NCBI RefSeq assembly: GCF_013167455.1
Contig: NZ_CP038328.1
Length of the DNA: 64,000 nucleotides
Origin: Escherichia coli O157:H7
GTDB lineage: Bacteria; Pseudomonadota; Gammaproteobacteria; Enterobacterales; Enterobacteriaceae
Strand: one strand, 5' to 3'
Made by a program: the position numbers and the translations under genes. How positions within the stretch are numbered: position 1 is the stretch's first letter; each line of letters starts with the position of its first letter. Below the pieces are notes generated by a model that was not told where the DNA came from, did no database searches, and saw only the letters and a list, made by a program, of their open reading frames with translations. This document shows positions 2,714 to 62,223 of this stretch, one piece after another.

Positions 2714-3175
2714 TATGGATTGCCTGTAAAGTTCATCGCTTTCTGCTTTCTATCATCGCAGGAGAAGGCGTAAAAGCAAGCGTTTAGCGACTCTTTATGA
2801 AGTCTGAAAAGTGAGGAAATGCTGCGAGTATAACGCTTACTCGTGAGGATTTATGTTCTGCTGGCAGTTTCGTGATCAACACCTCACGCCAGGATGGCTT
2901 TATGCACTATCGCAATGTGGTTTGTTTGTTGGCTTTTTTAGTTCCGTCAGCGTGAGGATGCTCGCTCGGTAAACCTGATCATAATGTTTACCAGAAACAG
3001 GGAAAGGCGTGGTGTAACTGCGCCCTAATGAAGAGACAAATCTTTCGCTACACAGAGACATCATTATTCCGGTGACGGATGAATCATGCCGTAACGCAGC
3101 CGCAGAGGTGCAAACTTTGAAGCCCTGACCCCATGCCGCTATACTGCCGCCATCACTTAAAAACAGGATACAACA

Positions 3176-3496
3176 ATGAACGACAGTGAATTTCATCGCC
3201 TGGCTGATCAACTGTGGCTGACCATTGAAGAGCGTCTGGACGACTGGGATGGCGACAGCGATATCGACTGCGAAATCAACGGCGGCGTGCTGACCATTAC
3301 CTTTGAGAATGGCAGCAAAATCATTATCAACCGCCAGGAACCGCTGCACCAGGTATGGCTGGCAACCAAACAAGGCGGCTACCATTTTGATCTGAAAGGC
3401 GATGAGTGGATTTGCGATCGCAGCGGCGAAACCTTCCGGGATTTGCTGGAACAGGCGGCGACGCAGCAGGCGGGTGAAACAGTCAGTTTCCGCTAA
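3176..3496 (+). CDS. cyaY: Frataxin homolog CyaY (iron-sulfur cluster assembly)
   Basis: 106-aa [36 protein letters not shown]...; acidic N-terminal ridge typical of frataxin. Confidence 0.92.
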
Positions 3497-3535
3497 GATT
3501 GCATGCCGGATAAGCCTCGCTTTCCGGCACGTTCA

Positions 3536-6082
3536 TCACGAAAAATACTGCTGTAATAGCGGCGTATCGTGATCCTGATTGGCAGGCGGCATGTTACCGA
3601 TAGATTTTGTGCGGAACGGAATCACCTGTTCACGACCATCAACCTTCACAATCTGATAGAACTGCGGCAGGTTGAAGTTGATGAAGCTTGAGCCGTAGGT
3701 AAAACGGTCATGCGATGACGAGTAGAAGCGACTGACGTCACGTACCAGCTCCTCTTTGCTGCCTTCGCAGTGGTGATACACCTCAACCCGATTGCTTTCG
3801 TCGAGAATGTAGATATTAAAGCCATTCTCATCTTGCGTTTCTTCGAAAAAGAACTGGATGATCCCTTCGCTGGCAAAGCCGTCCACCACCGCCGGTAATT
3901 TGACGTGATTGGTTTCAACCTGCACTGACAGGCCGTGCAGTTTGTTATGCGAAATAGCGCCATAAAACTCGATGGCGTTCTCCAGTTTCTGTACCGATAC
4001 ATTCAGGCGTTCGAAGAACAAGCCCCAGGTTTGACCAGAAACGCGCAGCGCCTTGAAACGCCCGGTTTCCTGGCGGGTGCTGGAAAGACGCAATTCAATA
4101 CACTCAGAAACCAGTTGCTGCACGCGAGTACGAATTAAGCCGCGCAGATGCTGGCTATAACAGAAGACTTCCACGCTATCTGGCGGTGCGGCGTCCTGAT
4201 GCATTTTGCCGAGAATAGTTTTCAGGGCTTCGATCATCGATTGCTCGCCGTTGAAGTGCAGCGTACGCACTTCATTCCACGAGTTGCGATACAGCAGGTC
4301 AACGCTACCTACCAGGCAATTTTGATTCTCGCCAAAGCTGAAGACATCCAGCTTACGGAAATCAAAATGCACCACCTGATTGCGGAACGCAGCTGTCGGG
4401 TCATATTCCAGGTTAACGATAATCGCCAGATGGCGGATCTCACACGGGCTGTAGAGCGCCTTCGGTGTCGGTGCAGGTAAGCGCAACGGGAAATGGTGCG
4501 ACACGTCGGCGACCATCTCCTGCAACTTAGGCAAATCGACAATGCCGTTACCTTTAATATACAAGCGGGTGCGCGAGGTCAGCAGGCCGTTAAACCATGC
4601 CCACGCCACCAGTTTATTCAGGTAACGGTTATATTCCAGCGGCTGATGGCTGATGATCGACTCAATATTTGGCGCGCGGTTATACAGATACCAACCTGAA
4701 CGGTTAGCCCGGCCCGGCGGCACATAAATAAAGGTCAGATTCGGTTCCGAGAGATCGGGTGAAATCTGCGGGTTTACCAGCGTCACTTTACCTGGTAATG
4801 CTTCAAACGCGGCATACAGCTTACGCGTCAGCACGCCGATATCCTGCGGACTGGCGGAGACGCTAAGGTTATTGCGACGCGCAAAGCGGATCAGATTACG
4901 GTAGCTCTGCATCATCGCGTCGAGCAACTCGTTGTGCGCCTCACGCACCTGATCAATCTTCCAGTTAGCGCGGTTATCGAGCATTGCCAGACGAGCTTCG
5001 TCCCACCCCCACTCGCTCACTAACTGGCTCAACACTGCGCGACGCCAGCCTACGCAGGCGCGTTCACGGCTGAGCTTTTCGCACACTTTTAAATAGAAGC
5101 AGCGACGTACTAAATCCAGACGGGTGAAATCTTCAATCGCCGTCAGGTATTCAGTAACACGCTCCAGCATCATGCAGTAAGGATCGAGGCCAAACGATAC
5201 AATCTCGCCGTCGTGCAAACGCTGTTTGATATCTTTCGCCAGCAGGCGTGGGTTCGGGTATTCCCAGGAATAGGCTTCCAGCAGCAGTGTCTTCAGCACC
5301 GCTTTGTATGGAGAATCGATACTCTTGTAGAGTTGCCAAAGGCTGGCACCGAAGTATTCTTCAGCGGAAAGCGAGCTTAAGCCGCCGAGATCCAGCCATT
5401 CATTTGGCGTCAGCACGCCTTGTGCGTAGAGCGTCATTACGTAGTCATCGTAATGCTCTTCTTCGTCGCACGGCACCATATTCCACAGAATACGCTTACC
5501 GGCGAGACGCACGGCGGTACGATAAAATTCATCAAGCAGCAGTATATGCTGGGTGGAGCCACAATCTTCGCCCCCCAGACTGCCACTCTCGTTGTGGCGA
5601 AAACGGTTTTCATCAATCAGGAAGAAGCTAACTTCCACACCCAGCGAGGCGGCCCAGCTTTCCAGCAGGCTGCATTTACGTTGTAGCAACTGGCGCTCTT
5701 CGCTATCGAGCCAGGATTGATGACAGACCCAGATATCCAGGTCAGAGGAACAACTTTGCCCTACGGACGAGGTGCTGCCCATGGTGTATACACCAGTAAT
5801 TGGAAGCTCACCTTTCGGCGGGTCCTGTACTGACATTCCACGATACAGTTCAAGCTCGTTCAGGTAGTGGCGTTGAGTTTCATCAGGCGTGTAAAGGCAA
5901 ATGCCTTTGGGAACGTTACCATCAAGGTAACCCGGCATTAGCGGATGGTGATAGTGCAACAATGTCGGCAGTAGACTGTAGACCTGTTGGAATGCAGGCC
6001 CCATAGCAGCAAGCGCGCGATCCACACGCAATTGATTTATGGCATCCAGTCTCTGTTTCAGAGTCTCAATATAGAGGTACAA
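3536..6082 (-). CDS. cyaA: Adenylate cyclase (class I), TTG start
   Basis: 848-aa [21 protein letters not shown]...; start codon at 6080-6082 is TTG on the minus strand (caa on +). Confidence 0.95.
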
Positions 6083-55834: not shown

Positions 55835-55915
55835 TTGTTAAAGAGCAGTGCCGCTTCGCTTTTTCTCAGCGGCGCGGGGTGTGCATAATACGCTTTCCCG
55901 CTACAGAGTCAAGCA
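55835..55915 (-). promoter_or_regulatory. rrn P2 promoter (-35 TTGACT, -10 TATTAT) and leader boxA antitermination element
   Basis: Minus strand TTGACT (55907-55912), TATTAT (55885-55890); boxA TGCTCTTTAACAA at 55835-55847. Confidence 0.8.
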
Positions 55916-55994
55916 TTTATTTTTGCTTTCTCTGCCGGAATTCTCAGGAGAACCCCGCTGACCCGGCGGCGTGCTTGCCGTTGTTCCGTGTCAG

Positions 55995-56056
55995 TGGTGG
56001 CGCATTATAGGGAGTTATTCCGGTCTGACAAGAGGAAATTTAAAATAATTTTCTGA
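55995..56056 (-). promoter_or_regulatory. rrn P1 promoter with UP element
   Basis: Minus strand -35 TTGTCA (56026-56031), 16-bp spacer, -10 TATAAT (56004-56009), GCGCCACCACTG discriminator; upstream AGAAAATTATTTTAAATTTCCT UP-element-like A/T tract. Confidence 0.85.
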
Positions 56057-56183
56057 CCGCGCATTTTTTCAGCAAAAGCCCCGTTAATGTGCCATAAAAC
56101 AAGCAATTTGCCGTTTTTGCAACCGTAATCACACTTCCTGGTGGCATACTAAGGAGGAATAAAAAGAAAAAGGAAGATTAGTA

Positions 56184-56876
56184 ATGCCTTTAAGCGCACA
56201 ACAGTTAGCTGCACAGAAAAACCTTTCGTATGTTCTGGCTGAGAAGCTGGCGCAACGGATCTTAAAAGGTGAATATGAACCCGGCACCATTTTGCCCGGT
56301 GAGATTGAGCTGGGCGAGCAATTTGGAGTGAGTCGTACAGCGGTACGCGAAGCGGTCAAAACGTTAACGGCAAAAGGGATGGTTTTACCGCGACCGCGAA
56401 TTGGTACCCGGGTCATGCCACAATCGAACTGGAATTTTCTTGATCAGGAATTGCTTACCTGGTGGATGACAGAAGAGAACTTTCATCAGGTCATCGATCA
56501 CTTTCTGGTTATGCGTATCTGTCTGGAGCCACAAGCTTGCCTACTGGCAGCAACGGTTGGCACCGCGGAACAGAAAGCGCATCTCAATACGTTAATGGCC
56601 GAAATGGCGGCATTAAAAGAGAACTTTCGCCGTGAACGCTGGATCGAAGTCGATATGGCCTGGCATGAGCATATCTATGAAATGAGCGCCAATCCGTTTT
56701 TGACCTCATTCGCCTCGCTATTCCATTCGGTTTATCACACTTACTTCACGTCAATTACCAGCGACACAGTGATAAAGCTGGATCTGCATCAGGCGATAGT
56801 CGATGCGATTATCCAAAGCGATGGCGACGCGGCATTTAAAGCTTGTCAGGCGCTGCTACGCTCACCTGATAAGTGA
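56184..56876 (+). CDS. yieP: GntR/FadR-family transcriptional regulator YieP
   Basis: 230-aa ORF with N-terminal winged-HTH (GEQFGVSRTAVREAVKTL) and FCD domain. Confidence 0.88.
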   Translation: MPLSAQQLAAQKNLSYVLAEKLAQRILKGEYEPGTILPGEIELGEQFGVSRTAVREAVKTLTAKGMVLPRPRIGTRVMPQSNWNFLDQELLTWWMTEENFHQVIDHFLVMRICLEPQACLLAATVGTAEQKAHLNTLMAEMAALKENFRRERWIEVDMAWHEHIYEMSANPFLTSFASLFHSVYHTYFTSITSDTVIKLDLHQAIVDAIIQSDGDAAFKACQALLRSPDK

Positions 56877-56898
56877 TAACCCGATAACAGGACATTGA

Positions 56899-58326
56899 AT
56901 GAGCGATAAAAAGAAGCGCAGTATGGCGGGTTTGCCGTGGATCGCGGCGATGGCCTTCTTCATGCAGGCACTTGATGCCACTATTCTGAATACCGCCTTA
57001 CCCGCAATCGCTCATAGCCTTAATCGTTCTCCTCTCGCGATGCAATCAGCCATCATCAGTTATACGCTGACGGTGGCGATGCTTATTCCGGTAAGCGGAT
57101 GGCTAGCCGATCGCTTCGGTACGCGTCGCATTTTTACCCTTGCCGTGAGTCTGTTCACATTGGGTTCTCTGGCCTGCGCACTTTCTAATTCGCTACCACA
57201 GCTGGTTGTCTTCCGGGTTATTCAGGGGATAGGCGGCGCAATGATGATGCCTGTTGCTCGGCTGGCCTTACTGCGCGCTTATCCTCGTAATGAACTTCTT
57301 CCAGTATTGAATTTTGTCGCCATGCCGGGTCTGGTGGGGCCAATTTTAGGCCCCATTCTTGGCGGCGTGCTGGTCACCTGGGCAACCTGGCACTGGATAT
57401 TTTTAATCAATATCCCCATAGGTATTGCGGGCCTTCTTTACGCGCGCAAACATATGCCCAATTTCACCACCGCACGACGCAGATTCGATATCACTGGCTT
57501 TTTGCTGTTTGGCCTCAGCCTTGTTCTCTTCTCAAGCGGAATAGAGCTATTCGGGGAAAAGATTGTCGCCAGCTGGATTGCCTTGACGGTAATTGTCACC
57601 AGCATCGGGTTACTGCTTCTCTATATTCTCCATGCACGACGCACGCCAAACCCATTAATTTCATTAGATTTATTTAAAACCCGCACTTTCTCGATCGGTA
57701 TCGTAGGCAATATTGCAACCCGTCTGGGGACCGGCTGTGTACCGTTCCTTATGCCATTAATGTTACAGGTAGGATTTGGTTATCAGGCGTTTATTGCTGG
57801 CTGTATGATGGCACCGACAGCGTTAGGTTCCATTATTGCAAAATCGATGGTTACCCAAGTCTTACGTCGTCTGGGCTATCGCCATACATTAGTGGGGATC
57901 ACGGTGATTATTGGGCTAATGATCGCTCAGTTCTCTTTGCAATCACCGGCAATGGCAATATGGATGCTGATCTTGCCGTTGTTTATATTAGGGATGGCTA
58001 TGTCGACGCAGTTTACCGCGATGAATACCATCACACTTGCCGATCTGACCGATGACAACGCCAGCAGCGGTAACAGTGTTCTGGCGGTCACGCAGCAACT
58101 GTCTATCAGTTTAGGCGTAGCTGTAAGTGCGGCCGTCCTTCGCGTTTATGAAGGAATGGAAGGCACAACGACTGTCGAACAATTCCACTATACGTTTATC
58201 ACAATGGGCATTATTACTGTTGCTTCAGCAGCAATGTTCATGCTTCTGAAAACAACCGATGGTAATAATTTGATCAAAAGACAGCGTAAATCTAAGCCGA
58301 ACCACGTTCCATCAGAATCGGAGTAA
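56899..58326 (+). CDS. hsrA: MFS transporter HsrA (YieO), putative efflux pump
   Basis: 475-aa 14-TM-type [44 protein letters not shown]... Confidence 0.88.
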
Positions 58327-59284
58327 GTTGTAATCGTTGTTGCTGAAGGGTCGGCTGGGTTATCCGATGGATGAGTACATCAATCGCCAGCTCCCCCAGT
58401 TCATCTTTTGGTTGATGGATCGTGGTTAATGGTGGCGTCATAAAGCTTGCCAGTTCGATATCGTCATAGCCAATCACCGCGATATCCTGCGGAACCTGTA
58501 ACTCTGCCTGATATAACGCCTGGTAAACGCCAACAGCCATAGCGTCATTTCCGGTAAAGACGGCCTGAGGACGCAGCGGATGTGATAGCAGTTGGCGCAT
58601 AGCGTCAAACCCGCCGTTAAATTCAAAATCACCAGTGACTTCATAGCCATCAGGAATGTTGAGACCCGCACGTTTCATCGCCGCCCGATAACCTTCCAAC
58701 CGCAGGCGCGCCGGAGTTTTATCCAGCGGGCCGGTAATACAGGCGATACGGGTATGACCTTTATCGATCAGATATTGCGTTGCTAAGTCTCCGCCCAGCA
58801 ACGAGTTATCCTGAATAAGATCGCTGTCGCCATCGAACGGAGCCCAGTCCATCATCACAGTAGGCACTGTCGGATAACGTTGCATGATTTCACGCGAAGG
58901 TTGATGCGTTTCGGTGCACAGTAACAGCAAGCCATCAACGCGTTTTTGCATCAGCGTTTCCAGATTGCGATTCATCCGCTGTTCATCGCCTTCGGTATTG
59001 CAAAGGACGAGACTATAACCGCGTTCGAAGCAGCTGCGTTCAACGCCACGCACCAGTTCTGAATAGAAAGGATTGGTACTGGCAGTGATCAACATGCCAA
59101 TGGTATGTGTTTGATTGAGTTTGAGGCTACGCGCCAGAGCTGATGGCGCGTAATTGAGTTCTTTAATCGCCGCTTCAACTTTGGCGGTAATCGCTTCACT
59201 GACGAAGCGATCTTTATTGATAACGTGAGAAACTGTTGAGGTAGAAACGCCCGCCAGGCGGGCAACATCTTTCATTGTAGCCAA
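58292..59284 (-). CDS. rbsR: Ribose operon repressor (LacI family)
   Basis: 330-aa [34 protein letters not shown]... (LacI HTH). Confidence 0.93.
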
Positions 59285-59287
59285 GCG

Positions 59288-60217
59288 TCACCTCTGCCTG
59301 TCTAAAAATGCGTCGATCTCTTCACGCCACGGTACGGAAGGTTGTGCGCCTTTACGTGTTACGGCAATCGCAGCGGCAGCATGGGCAAACCGAATCGCCT
59401 CTGGCAATGGTTTTTCTTCCAGCAACGCCGTGATTAACGCGCCGTTAAAGGTATCTCCGGCAGCAATGGTATCGACAGCCTGCACCCGGAATCCAGGAAC
59501 GCGCTGACCTTCACCATTCACGCTAGCCCATACACCACGACTTCCTAAAGTAATCAGTACAGTACGGATACCTTTTTCATGCAGTACCTGCGCCGCCTTC
59601 GCTGCATCTTCATCATTTTCAACACGAATACCGGTGAGCTTTTCTGCTTCCGTTTCGTTTGGCGTAATAATGTCCACCAGCGCCAGCAGTTCGTCAGGAA
59701 GTTCGCGAGCCGGAGCCGGGTTAAGCGCAACGATAGTCTTATTTTGATGGGCGATTTTCGCCGCTGCCATCACACTTTCGAGTGGTGATTCCAGCTGCAT
59801 TAATAATGCTGACGCGTTGGCAATACGCTCACGTTGCGCTTCCACCAGCGCCGGGGAAAGGGCAGCATTAGCGCCGGCATGAATACCGATGACATTCTCA
59901 CCTTCGCCATTAACAAAAATCAGCGCCACACCTGTTGATTCGCCTTTGATCACGCTGACCGGAGTAATATCGATGTTATCAGTGGCGAGCTGCTGGCGAA
60001 CGCTCTCGCCAATGCTGTCATCGCCAGTACAGGCAATAAACGCGATATTCGCACCGCTACGCCCAGCAGCCACAGCCTGATTCGCGCCTTTGCCGCCAAA
60101 TGCAACCTGATAGTGGTTACCGGTTACGGTTTCGCCTGGAGTAGGAAAAGATTGAAGATTAAGAATGTGGTCAGCATTAATGCTGCCAAGAACAACGAGG
60201 CTGCCTGCGTTTTGCAT
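59288..60217 (-). CDS. rbsK: Ribokinase
   Basis: Translation MQNAGSLVVLGSINADHILNLQSFPTPGETV... (PfkB family); track ORF has a 9-codon upstream extension. Confidence 0.93.
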   Translation of the reverse strand: MQNAGSLVVLGSINADHILNLQSFPTPGETVTGNHYQVAFGGKGANQAVAAGRSGANIAFIACTGDDSIGESVRQQLATDNIDITPVSVIKGESTGVALIFVNGEGENVIGIHAGANAALSPALVEAQRERIANASALLMQLESPLESVMAAAKIAHQNKTIVALNPAPARELPDELLALVDIITPNETEAEKLTGIRVENDEDAAKAAQVLHEKGIRTVLITLGSRGVWASVNGEGQRVPGFRVQAVDTIAAGDTFNGALITALLEEKPLPEAIRFAHAAAAIAVTRKGAQPSVPWREEIDAFLDRQR

Positions 60218-60342
60218 ATTCGGGATGTCCATAAAATGCGCCACCGTGTTAGGGTGGCGCGTGCCCTGCTTTTCTTTATATTACACGTTCATCTGTCGAT
60301 GACGTATTTATGTCACCATCAGGTCATACAACCTGATTAAAA

Positions 60343-61233
60343 CTACTGCTTAACAACCAGTTTCAGATCAACCGGATACTTAGCCTGAACTTTCTCGCCT
60401 TTCAGCACTTTATCTGCGGTTTCAACGCCTTTCGCGCCAATCTGATCGGGTAGCTGAGCGATAGTCGCTGCTAGTTTGCCATCATTCACCGCTTTTTCGC
60501 CATCCGGTGTACCGTCAAATCCGACGACCATCACATCCGATTTACCGGCAGTTTGCAGTGCGCGCAGCGCGCCCAGCGCCATTTCATCATTCTGCGCGAA
60601 TACAGCCTGAACATCCGGATGAGCGGTCAACAGGTTCTGCATTACGTTCAAACCTTTGGTGCGATCAAAATCTGCTGGCTGGCTGGCAAGAACATTAAAC
60701 TTGTGAGCAGCAACGGCCTGCTGGAAGCCTTCGCCACGTTCACGGGCTGCGGATGTACCAGCAATGCCTTGCAGCTCGATAACTTTGGCACCTTCACCCG
60801 CTTTCTTCGCGATGTAATCACCGGCGATTTTGCCACCCAGTACGTTATCAGAAGCAATGTGGCTCACCACTTCACCTTTCGTTGCCTGGCGGTCAAGAGT
60901 GATAACCGGGATGTTCGCCTGGTTAGCCATCTTCACAGCATTACCTACTGCGTCGGAGTCGGTCGGGTTAATCAGCAGAATTTTGGTGCCGCGAACGGTT
61001 AAGTCCTGCACGTTCGCCAGCTCTTTCGCCGGGTTGTTCTGGGAGTCCAGCACCACCAGGTTATAGCCAAGTTTATCCGCCTCTTTCTGCGCGCCATCTT
61101 TCAGCGATACAAAGAACGGGTTGTTAAGCGTGGAGACCACCAGCGCGATGGTGTCTTTTGCCATCGCATTCGCACTGACGGTGGCGCTTAGCGCAACAGC
61201 GGAAACCAGGGTAGCCAGTTTTTTCATGTTCAT
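60343..61233 (-). CDS. rbsB: Ribose ABC transporter periplasmic binding protein
   Basis: Translation [35 protein letters not shown]...; signal peptide. Confidence 0.95.
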
Positions 61234-61257
61234 ATTCAAGATGTCCTGTAGTCGTTA

Positions 61258-62223
61258 TTACTGCTTTTTGTTGTCTACCAGCACCGCCAGCAAAATCACC
61301 ACCGCTTTGACGATCATCTGGTAATAGGAGGAAACACCTAACAAATTCAATCCATTATTAAGGAAGCCAAGAATTAATGCGCCGATCAACGTCCCAACAA
61401 TGCGACCTTTTCCGCCCGCCAGACTCGTACCGCCCAGAACCACCGCAGCAATAGCATCCAGCTCATAGCCAGTCCCCGCCGTGGGTTGTGCGGAGGAGAG
61501 ACGCGCCACTTCAATGATCCCGGCCAGTGATGCCAGCAGACCACAAAGAGAATAGACGATGATTTTGATTTTATTGACGTTGATACCAGAAAGACGCGTT
61601 GCCGCTTCGTTGCCGCCCAGCGCGTAGATGTAACGCCCCAGACGCGTGTGATGCAGCATGTACCAGGCCGCGAGGAAGACAATCCCCATGATCCAGACTG
61701 GCGTCGGTACGCCCAGCGGACGACCAATACCAAACCAGCCAAACAGATCGGCGTTCTCAGTAAAGCCGGTATTCACTGGGCTACCGTTGGTATAAACCAT
61801 GGTCACGCCGCGCAGTAAAAGCATCATAACCAGCGTAGCGATAAACGCCTGGACGCGACCTTTCGCTACAATCACTCCGGTTACCGCACCAATTGCGGCA
61901 CCTAACGCGAGAGCGGCAGCGACAGCCACCAGCGCATTGACTTCAATGCCGACGATAGATGCAGCAACTGCGCCGGTTAGCGCCAACAGAGAACCTACCG
62001 ACAAGTCGATGCCCGACGTCAGGATCACCAGCGTCATCCCGACCGCCATAATGGCGTTCACTGAGGTTTGCTGGAGAATATTGAATAAGTTATTGATGGT
62101 GAAAAAGTTCGGGCTTAACGTCGAGACAATCGCGATCAGCACCAGCAGAGCGATAAGCGATTTCTGCTCCATCAGCCACGCTTTCGTGAAATAACGGCGA
62201 CCAGAGACAGTCTGGGTTGTCAT
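61258..62223 (-). CDS. rbsC: Ribose ABC transporter permease
   Basis: 321-aa polytopic membrane ORF MTTQTVSGRRYFTKAWLMEQKSLIALLVLIAIVS... Confidence 0.93.
   Translation of the reverse strand: MTTQTVSGRRYFTKAWLMEQKSLIALLVLIAIVSTLSPNFFTINNLFNILQQTSVNAIMAVGMTLVILTSGIDLSVGSLLALTGAVAASIVGIEVNALVAVAAALALGAAIGAVTGVIVAKGRVQAFIATLVMMLLLRGVTMVYTNGSPVNTGFTENADLFGWFGIGRPLGVPTPVWIMGIVFLAAWYMLHHTRLGRYIYALGGNEAATRLSGINVNKIKIIVYSLCGLLASLAGIIEVARLSSAQPTAGTGYELDAIAAVVLGGTSLAGGKGRIVGTLIGALILGFLNNGLNLLGVSSYYQMIVKAVVILLAVLVDNKKQ

Follow-up and report, generated by a model that had tools for sequence, protein, structure and literature searches.

The 35-bp convergent overlap of the hsrA and rbsR coding ends in Escherichia coli O157:H7 and its counterparts across the Enterobacteriaceae

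In Escherichia coli O157:H7, the last codons of hsrA and rbsR occupy the same 35 bp of DNA on opposite strands, and we consider it highly probable that this is an incidental convergent coding overlap, made by stop-codon loss and tolerated as a low-cost arrangement. The overlap lies in a 64,000-nt stretch (contig NZ_CP038328.1 of assembly GCF_013167455.1), which is called the window here; positions refer to it unless an MG1655 coordinate is given. The 35-bp overlap is already known from standard E. coli annotation and a published overlap catalogue, and is an ordinary member of a well-described class. The added value of the present analysis is a clean series within the Enterobacteriaceae, which runs from a gap of 2-3 nt over overlaps of 4, 9, 24 and 35 bp to one of 53 bp.

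Gene ends and geometry of the overlap

ORF calls in the window placed hsrA (yieO), which encodes an MFS transporter of 475 aa, at 56899..58326 on the + strand with its stop codon TAA at 58324-58326, and rbsR, which encodes the LacI-family ribose repressor of 330 aa, at 58292..59284 on the - strand with its stop codon TAG, read as cta on the + strand, at 58292-58294. The DNA common to both genes is thus 58292..58326, or 35 bp, and corresponds to about 11 codons of each gene including both stops. The overlap has the phase (123:132), in which hsrA codon positions 1, 2 and 3 face rbsR positions 1, 3 and 2, respectively. The hsrA stop lies inside the rbsR codons for Leu320-Thr321 (CTT ACT), and the rbsR stop inside the hsrA codons for Ser465-Lys466 (tCT Aag). 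HsrA residues 466-475 (58294..58323, + strand), which are encoded antisense to the last rbsR codons, form a tail that species comparison showed to be lineage-specific.

A sequence-only reading of this DNA had described the 35-bp overlap and had seen no earlier in-frame stop in either gene. Both points were borne out when the ORF ends were recomputed: an earlier stop is impossible for hsrA and rbsR because each ORF ends at its first in-frame stop, and the identical overlap is present in the RefSeq annotation of E. coli MG1655 (rbsR 3938227..3939219, hsrA 3939185..3940612), C600 and NJS001. The region was found in 5356 of 5426 complete E. coli genomes, and positions 57800-58800 showed 98.9% identity to K-12 strains. 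The alignment with MG1655 covered 5301 nt without gaps at 99.3% identity, and the window position equals 3997511 minus the MG1655 coordinate. Within the overlap, the sole difference from MG1655 is at 58304 (A here, G in MG1655), a change that is synonymous in rbsR (Arg CGT/CGC) and replaces His469 by Arg in HsrA. The closest match to the window, with 100% identity over the aligned pieces of 57800-58800, was NJS001, whose rbsR (2993..4045 of locus L002) carries a 60-bp in-frame insertion and encodes 350 aa, compared with 330 aa for the gene at 58292..59284.

Protein comparison provided evidence for both gene ends. In RbsR, Pfam identified LacI at residues 3-48 and Peripla_BP_3 at residues 170-329 of 330 (profile positions 2-166 of 167), and the PDB entry 9ny7, 'Ribose operon repressor' (330 aa), aligned to residues 2-330 with zero mismatch. 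The alignment of PurR, which takes in its stretch VHPRLIERRS, also extended to RbsR residue 329. Since both the domain and the PurR alignment reach residue 329, the rbsR codons in the overlap encode the end of a conserved fold, namely the last strand of the LacI/PBP fold. In HsrA, the MFS_1 domain covers residues 17-406 (5.9e-48), and the last 10 residues are outside any conserved domain. Identity to orthologues in 80 species ranged from 81 to 96% for HsrA and from 80 to 97% for RbsR; hsrA and rbsR are genuine conserved genes and not mispredictions.

Upstream of hsrA, the window contains yieP (56184..56876, + strand), which encodes a FadR/GntR-family regulator, and yieP and hsrA have been reported to be one operon (PMC11340327). 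Under PGAP/RefSeq, the hsrA product bears the name 'mdtD: multidrug transporter subunit MdtD' in the majority of E. coli genomes and 'putative transporter HsrA' in MG1655. The former name looks like a paralogue-naming error, as mdtD proper is a member of the mdtABCD operon at another locus. Further upstream, a sigma-70 promoter close to consensus (11 of 12 positions; TTGTCA-16 nt-TATAAT) was observed at 56004..56031 on the - strand, aimed at a 16S rRNA gene, and we take it to be the core of the rrn P1 promoter (rrnC). An Rfam scan over 56000-60500 gave a single match, which has no bearing on the overlap: a part of Ysr197 at 56000-56078, within the same rrn leader, which scored 31 bits and so stayed below the gathering score of 167.

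Overlap length among the Enterobacteriaceae

Scanning with HsrA, one genome per species, yielded 80 other Enterobacteriaceae loci (the top 80), and a convergent rbsR followed hsrA in all 80, with the two genes abutting or overlapping in every case. In most draft assemblies among these loci (L003-L082), the contig ended about 0.8-1.3 kb 5′ of hsrA, just past yieP, which is consistent with an assembly break at a neighbouring rRNA operon; the position of these contig ends indicates that rrn-yieP-hsrA-rbsR synteny has been kept across the family.

Overlap classes were assigned from first in-frame stops at 83 loci, made up of the 80 other species, the window, C600 and NJS001. None of the 83 had an hsrA-rbsR spacer longer than 3 nt. 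The 35-bp overlap was the state of 37 loci (34 other species together with the window, C600 and NJS001), found in Escherichia, Salmonella, Citrobacter, several Enterobacter, Leclercia and Intestinirhabdus. The longest overlap, 53 bp, was seen at 5 loci of Lelliottia and Huaxiibacter, and a single locus, that of Kosakonia oryzendophytica, had 24 bp. Shorter overlaps were found at 6 loci with 9 bp (five species of Kosakonia, and Enterobacter sp. Bisph1) and at 25 loci with 4 bp (Pseudocitrobacter, Pluralibacter, Trabulsiella, Yokenella, Buttiauxella, Franconibacter, Siccibacter and others), leaving 9 loci with a gap of 2-3 nt (Kluyvera, Phytobacter, Atlantibacter and others).

The rbsR end was constant across loci (330 aa, ...LTPxLxxRGS[AV]*), and the length of HsrA varied from 461 to 477 aa. 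The conserved core of HsrA closes with KDGRNLIKERHK, and the sequence beyond it differs among loci. In basal genera, HsrA ends at about residue 463-467, often with interlocked stops in a 4-bp overlap, and has no tail. The interlocked stops of the 4-bp class read, for example, ...cac aaa gcT TAa. At the 35-bp loci, a 1-nt displacement of hsrA against the rbsR stop (for example ...cat aaa cCT Aaa ccg) takes the old stop out of the reading frame, and about 10 more codons are read before the tail closes at a TAA or TGA facing the rbsR codons for Leu320-Thr321. In Lelliottia and Huaxiibacter, the rbsR stop TAG has become TCG, which adds 6 RbsR codons and gives the 53-bp overlap.

A midpoint-rooted neighbour-joining tree was made from both proteins without their C-terminal ends. 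Its basal clades (Siccibacter, Franconibacter, Buttiauxella, Atlantibacter, Kosakonia and Phytobacter) have overlaps of at most 9 bp, except for one Kosakonia at 24 bp, so that the long overlap is most simply regarded as the derived state, by parsimony on a tree built from the same two genes. The 35/53-bp state occurs in two clades, one of Escherichia-Salmonella-Citrobacter and the other of Enterobacter-Leclercia-Lelliottia, and between them lies a clade whose members have a 4-bp overlap or a gap of 2 nt. The long overlap therefore arose twice, or reverted once, or the tree is wrong.

The sequence of events suggested by this comparison would begin with an ancestor in which hsrA and rbsR abutted with interlocked stops (TTAA/CTAA type, 4 bp) or stood 2-3 nt apart. 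A shift of 1 nt at the extreme end of hsrA would then have removed its stop in the Escherichia-Salmonella-Citrobacter and Enterobacter-Leclercia lineages, after which translation of hsrA would run about 10 codons on, antisense to rbsR, to the next TAA facing Leu320-Thr321. The length of such an extension was compared with the frequency of stops in the (123:132) antisense phase of 42 long ORFs of the window, which was 4.5% per codon, with open runs averaging 22 codons; a run of 10 or more codons without a stop has a probability of 0.63 in this phase. The 35-bp length is thus the outcome expected by chance after loss of an interlocked stop. What departs from chance is the layout itself: hsrA and rbsR abut or overlap throughout the 80 other species.

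Termination and antisense transcription

The same sequence-only reading had noted that no room is left for a terminator between the two genes, and our analysis agrees: the genes leave no DNA between them, and a search for a hairpin followed by a T-run found none at or near the junction on either strand. Terminator consensus scans over 57600-59000 and 55900-61500 gave no intrinsic or bidirectional site around the junction on the strands in question, and no - strand terminator-like site within hsrA, the stretch downstream of the rbsR stop. The nearest + strand terminator-like sites downstream of the hsrA stop were about 770-870 nt off, and the total of terminator-like sites equalled the shuffle expectation. 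RNA folding of 191 nt spanning the junction showed no significant structure (z = +0.65 for the + and -0.68 for the - strand). A bidirectional intrinsic terminator at the junction, considered as a candidate, was ruled out, there being no G+C-rich hairpin flanked by A- and T-tracts. The C/G ratio past the hsrA stop was 1.4-1.6 at +120..+220 and 1.7-1.9 at +280..+380, and the enrichment of C over G downstream of both stops is unremarkable, being within the 90th-97th percentile of window background.

A junction without space for a terminator is not a junction without termination, and for the hsrA strand, at least, published data point to Rho acting within the partner gene. Adams et al. 2021 defined Rho regions by DirectRNA-seq with and without bicyclomycin (Suppl. 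file 2) and 3′ ends by Term-seq (Suppl. file 1) (PMC7815308). Their data include a bicyclomycin-sensitive region at MG1655 3938923 on the - strand, classed as 'antisense rbsR', where coverage fell from 102 upstream to 32 downstream in untreated samples and from 164 to 143 in those given bicyclomycin (Rho score 2.78, p = 7.6e-6); the resolution of this position is coarse, as the score was computed on 800-nt windows at low coverage (PMC7815308). By gap-free coordinate conversion, 3938923 corresponds to window position 58588 or thereabouts, about 262 nt beyond the hsrA stop. We infer from this mapping a 3′ untranslated readthrough of hsrA at 58327..58588 (+ strand), antisense to rbsR and extending up to the Rho region (PMC7815308).

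Since there is neither intergenic DNA nor a terminator, a transcript that covers either stop is antisense to the other gene. In the proposed mechanism, each transcript would run into the partner gene for want of an intrinsic terminator; Rho would end the hsrA-strand transcript about 260 nt inside antisense rbsR, as the published data suggest, and the end of the rbsR-strand transcript may likewise be Rho-dependent. The supplementary 3′-end and Rho lists of Adams et al. 2021 have no entry antisense to hsrA (PMC7815308). ExcludonFinder placed rbsR-hsrA among 165 convergent overlaps found in at least 50% of 58 MG1655 RNA-seq sets (PMC12288877). Antisense transcript overlap, the first of two consequences that had been drawn from the sequence, is thus supported by the shared stop DNA, by the ExcludonFinder entry and by the Rho region antisense to rbsR. 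The second, transcriptional interference between the end of the rbs operon and hsrA, we can only infer. Read coverage was low on both strands, at about 100-170 reads per 800 nt (PMC7815308), and the antisense overlap would be short; because both genes have such low coverage, any interference is probably weak.

On the rbs strand, the dominant 3′ end in LB and in M63-glucose was that of the rbsZ terminator between rbsB and rbsK (3937278, 84,576 reads), and a Term-seq 3′ end inside rbsR at MG1655 3938325 had 865 reads (PMC7815308). Given 84,576 reads against 865, transcription of the rbs operon would seldom extend as far as the overlap under these two conditions. A strong hairpin, GCGCCACCCTAACACGGTGGCGC, followed by ATTTT, is located between rbsB and rbsK at 60233..60260 (- strand); the annotated sRNA RbsZ (MG1655 3937045..3937278) has its 3′ end at this hairpin, where the 84,576-read Term-seq 3′ end also falls.

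Two other sites of possible termination were observed within the genes themselves. The 3′ end at 3938325 lies in the 5′ region of rbsR, 98 nt into the gene (window 59186), and a Rho region internal to rbsR was reported at MG1655 3938387 on the + strand (window position about 59124) (PMC7815308). An inverted repeat, ATCGCTTC-n6-GAAGCGAT, at 59190-59211 adjoins this 3′ end and the Rho region, and the cluster (about 59124..59211) may represent premature termination or attenuation. A Rho region internal to hsrA, at MG1655 3940281 on the - strand (score 2.16; window position about 57230), lies about 330 nt into the ORF (PMC7815308), which suggests partial premature termination of yieP-hsrA transcripts.

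These data bear on an alternative that we regard as unlikely, namely that the pair is a functional excludon, in which the zero-spacer layout is kept to make expression of yieP-hsrA and rbsK-rbsR mutually exclusive through RNA polymerase collision and RNase III duplex cleavage. hsrA and rbsR do resemble excludons, being adjacent convergent genes with overlapping transcripts and a pair named in the MG1655 core set (PMC12288877); the spacer, never above 3 nt in the 80 other species, and the reach of hsrA-strand transcripts into antisense rbsR before Rho termination (PMC7815308) could be read in the same way. However, the pair was catalogued by coverage criteria, and any overlapping convergent CDS pair qualifies once both genes are transcribed. 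Coverage is low on both strands, the main 3′ end of the rbs strand in LB and M63-glucose lies upstream of rbsK, and literature searches found no reciprocal-expression data for hsrA/rbsR, so mutual exclusivity or an RNase III outcome is only putative for this pair. Inertia, too, accounts for the kept layout, because interlocked stops leave no neutral insertion site. Programmed head-on collision termination, moreover, needs a stem-loop to position the collision (Wang et al. 2022 bioRxiv 10.1101/2022.10.23.513370). The hsrA/rbsR pair is like the bidirectional terminator/RNAP collision pairs of that study in that convergent genes need two-way termination, but its junction has no stem-loop, no U/A tracts and no significant structure, and the published termination is by Rho in the partner gene instead.

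Constraint on the two frames and place among known overlaps

We looked at variation in the 35 loci with a 35-bp overlap (34 other species and the window). Column entropy by rbsR codon position was highest at position 3 (0.54 bits) and lower at positions 1 (0.14) and 2 (0.22), and the most variable hsrA position in the overlap was the second codon position. As variation tracks the codon periodicity of rbsR, it is rbsR that dictates the overlap and the hsrA tail is mainly a passenger: the rbsR frame sets the sequence, and the HsrA tail largely drifts with rbsR synonymous changes.

Some features of the overlap nevertheless leave room for a tail that is not wholly neutral. The hsrA stop requires an rbsR Leu320 codon ending in a pyrimidine, and this codon was CTT or CTC in 40 of 40 loci with a 35- or 53-bp overlap (39 other species and the window), as against 18 of the 41 remaining species, in which CTG dominates. 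Loss of this hsrA stop would add 16-77 codons. The synonymous variability of conserved rbsR codons was 0.62 bits in the overlap against 0.97 (Mann-Whitney p = 0.057; 4% of sliding windows), a comparison based on 7 codons in related species. Taken together, these values, from seven codons and phylogenetically related species, hint that the place where hsrA ends may be under some selection.

A stronger claim would be dual-coding constraint, in which the HsrA tail (KPxxxPSxxE) is functional, for example in sorting, stability or regulation, and both frames of 58292..58326 are under purifying selection. The preservation of the hsrA stop through minor Leu codons in all 40 long-overlap loci, the terminal Glu in 39 of the 40, and the borderline low synonymous variability of rbsR (p ~0.04-0.06, 7 codons) would fit this claim. 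We think it quite improbable, though, as the tail is missing in about half of the genera and lies outside the MFS domain, its residues vary widely, the second codon position of hsrA is the most variable of the overlap, and the species are phylogenetically non-independent with only 7 testable codons. A combined proposal takes the uninterrupted junction of the 80 species together with the strict keeping of the hsrA stop through minor rbsR Leu codons, and holds that selection maintains the junction as a dual-coding and antisense module coupling the ribose repressor and kinase to a YieP-HsrA membrane-stress unit via Rho-limited antisense readthrough; this is in our judgement very improbable. That the overlap is an annotation artefact, with hsrA or rbsR truly ending earlier and no translated overlap, is effectively refuted by the first in-frame stops, the 330 residues of 9ny7, the domain reaching residue 329 and the conservation of the ends across species.

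The properties of the hsrA/rbsR overlap are those of the convergent class described by Lillo & Krakauer 2007, who counted 58 convergent overlaps in E. coli (PMC2174442); hsrA/rbsR is presumably one of these. In that work, phase (123:132) had the largest share (49%) of convergent overlaps of 5 nt or more, mutation of a stop codon was the best-fitting origin, and terminators of such pairs must sit within the coding sequence of the partner (PMC2174442). Like the pairs of that study, hsrA and rbsR are two real genes on opposite strands with common 3′ ends in phase (123:132), their relatives show the classic 4-nt interlocked-stop class (TTAA/CTAA/TTAG/CTAG), and a stop was lost with extension to the next stop (PMC2174442). 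The hsrA stop differs from the usual origin in that it was lost by a frame change of 1 nt and not by point mutation, whereas the rbsR stop of Lelliottia was lost by the point mutation TAG to TCG; nothing essential differs.

The overlap of hsrA and rbsR by itself matters little and opens no new question. The locus could offer a modest natural system in which to test how Rho terminates transcripts within an antisense gene, and the series found in the Enterobacteriaceae is a textbook case of convergent overlap by stop loss, in which the older, structurally constrained frame dictates the newer tail.
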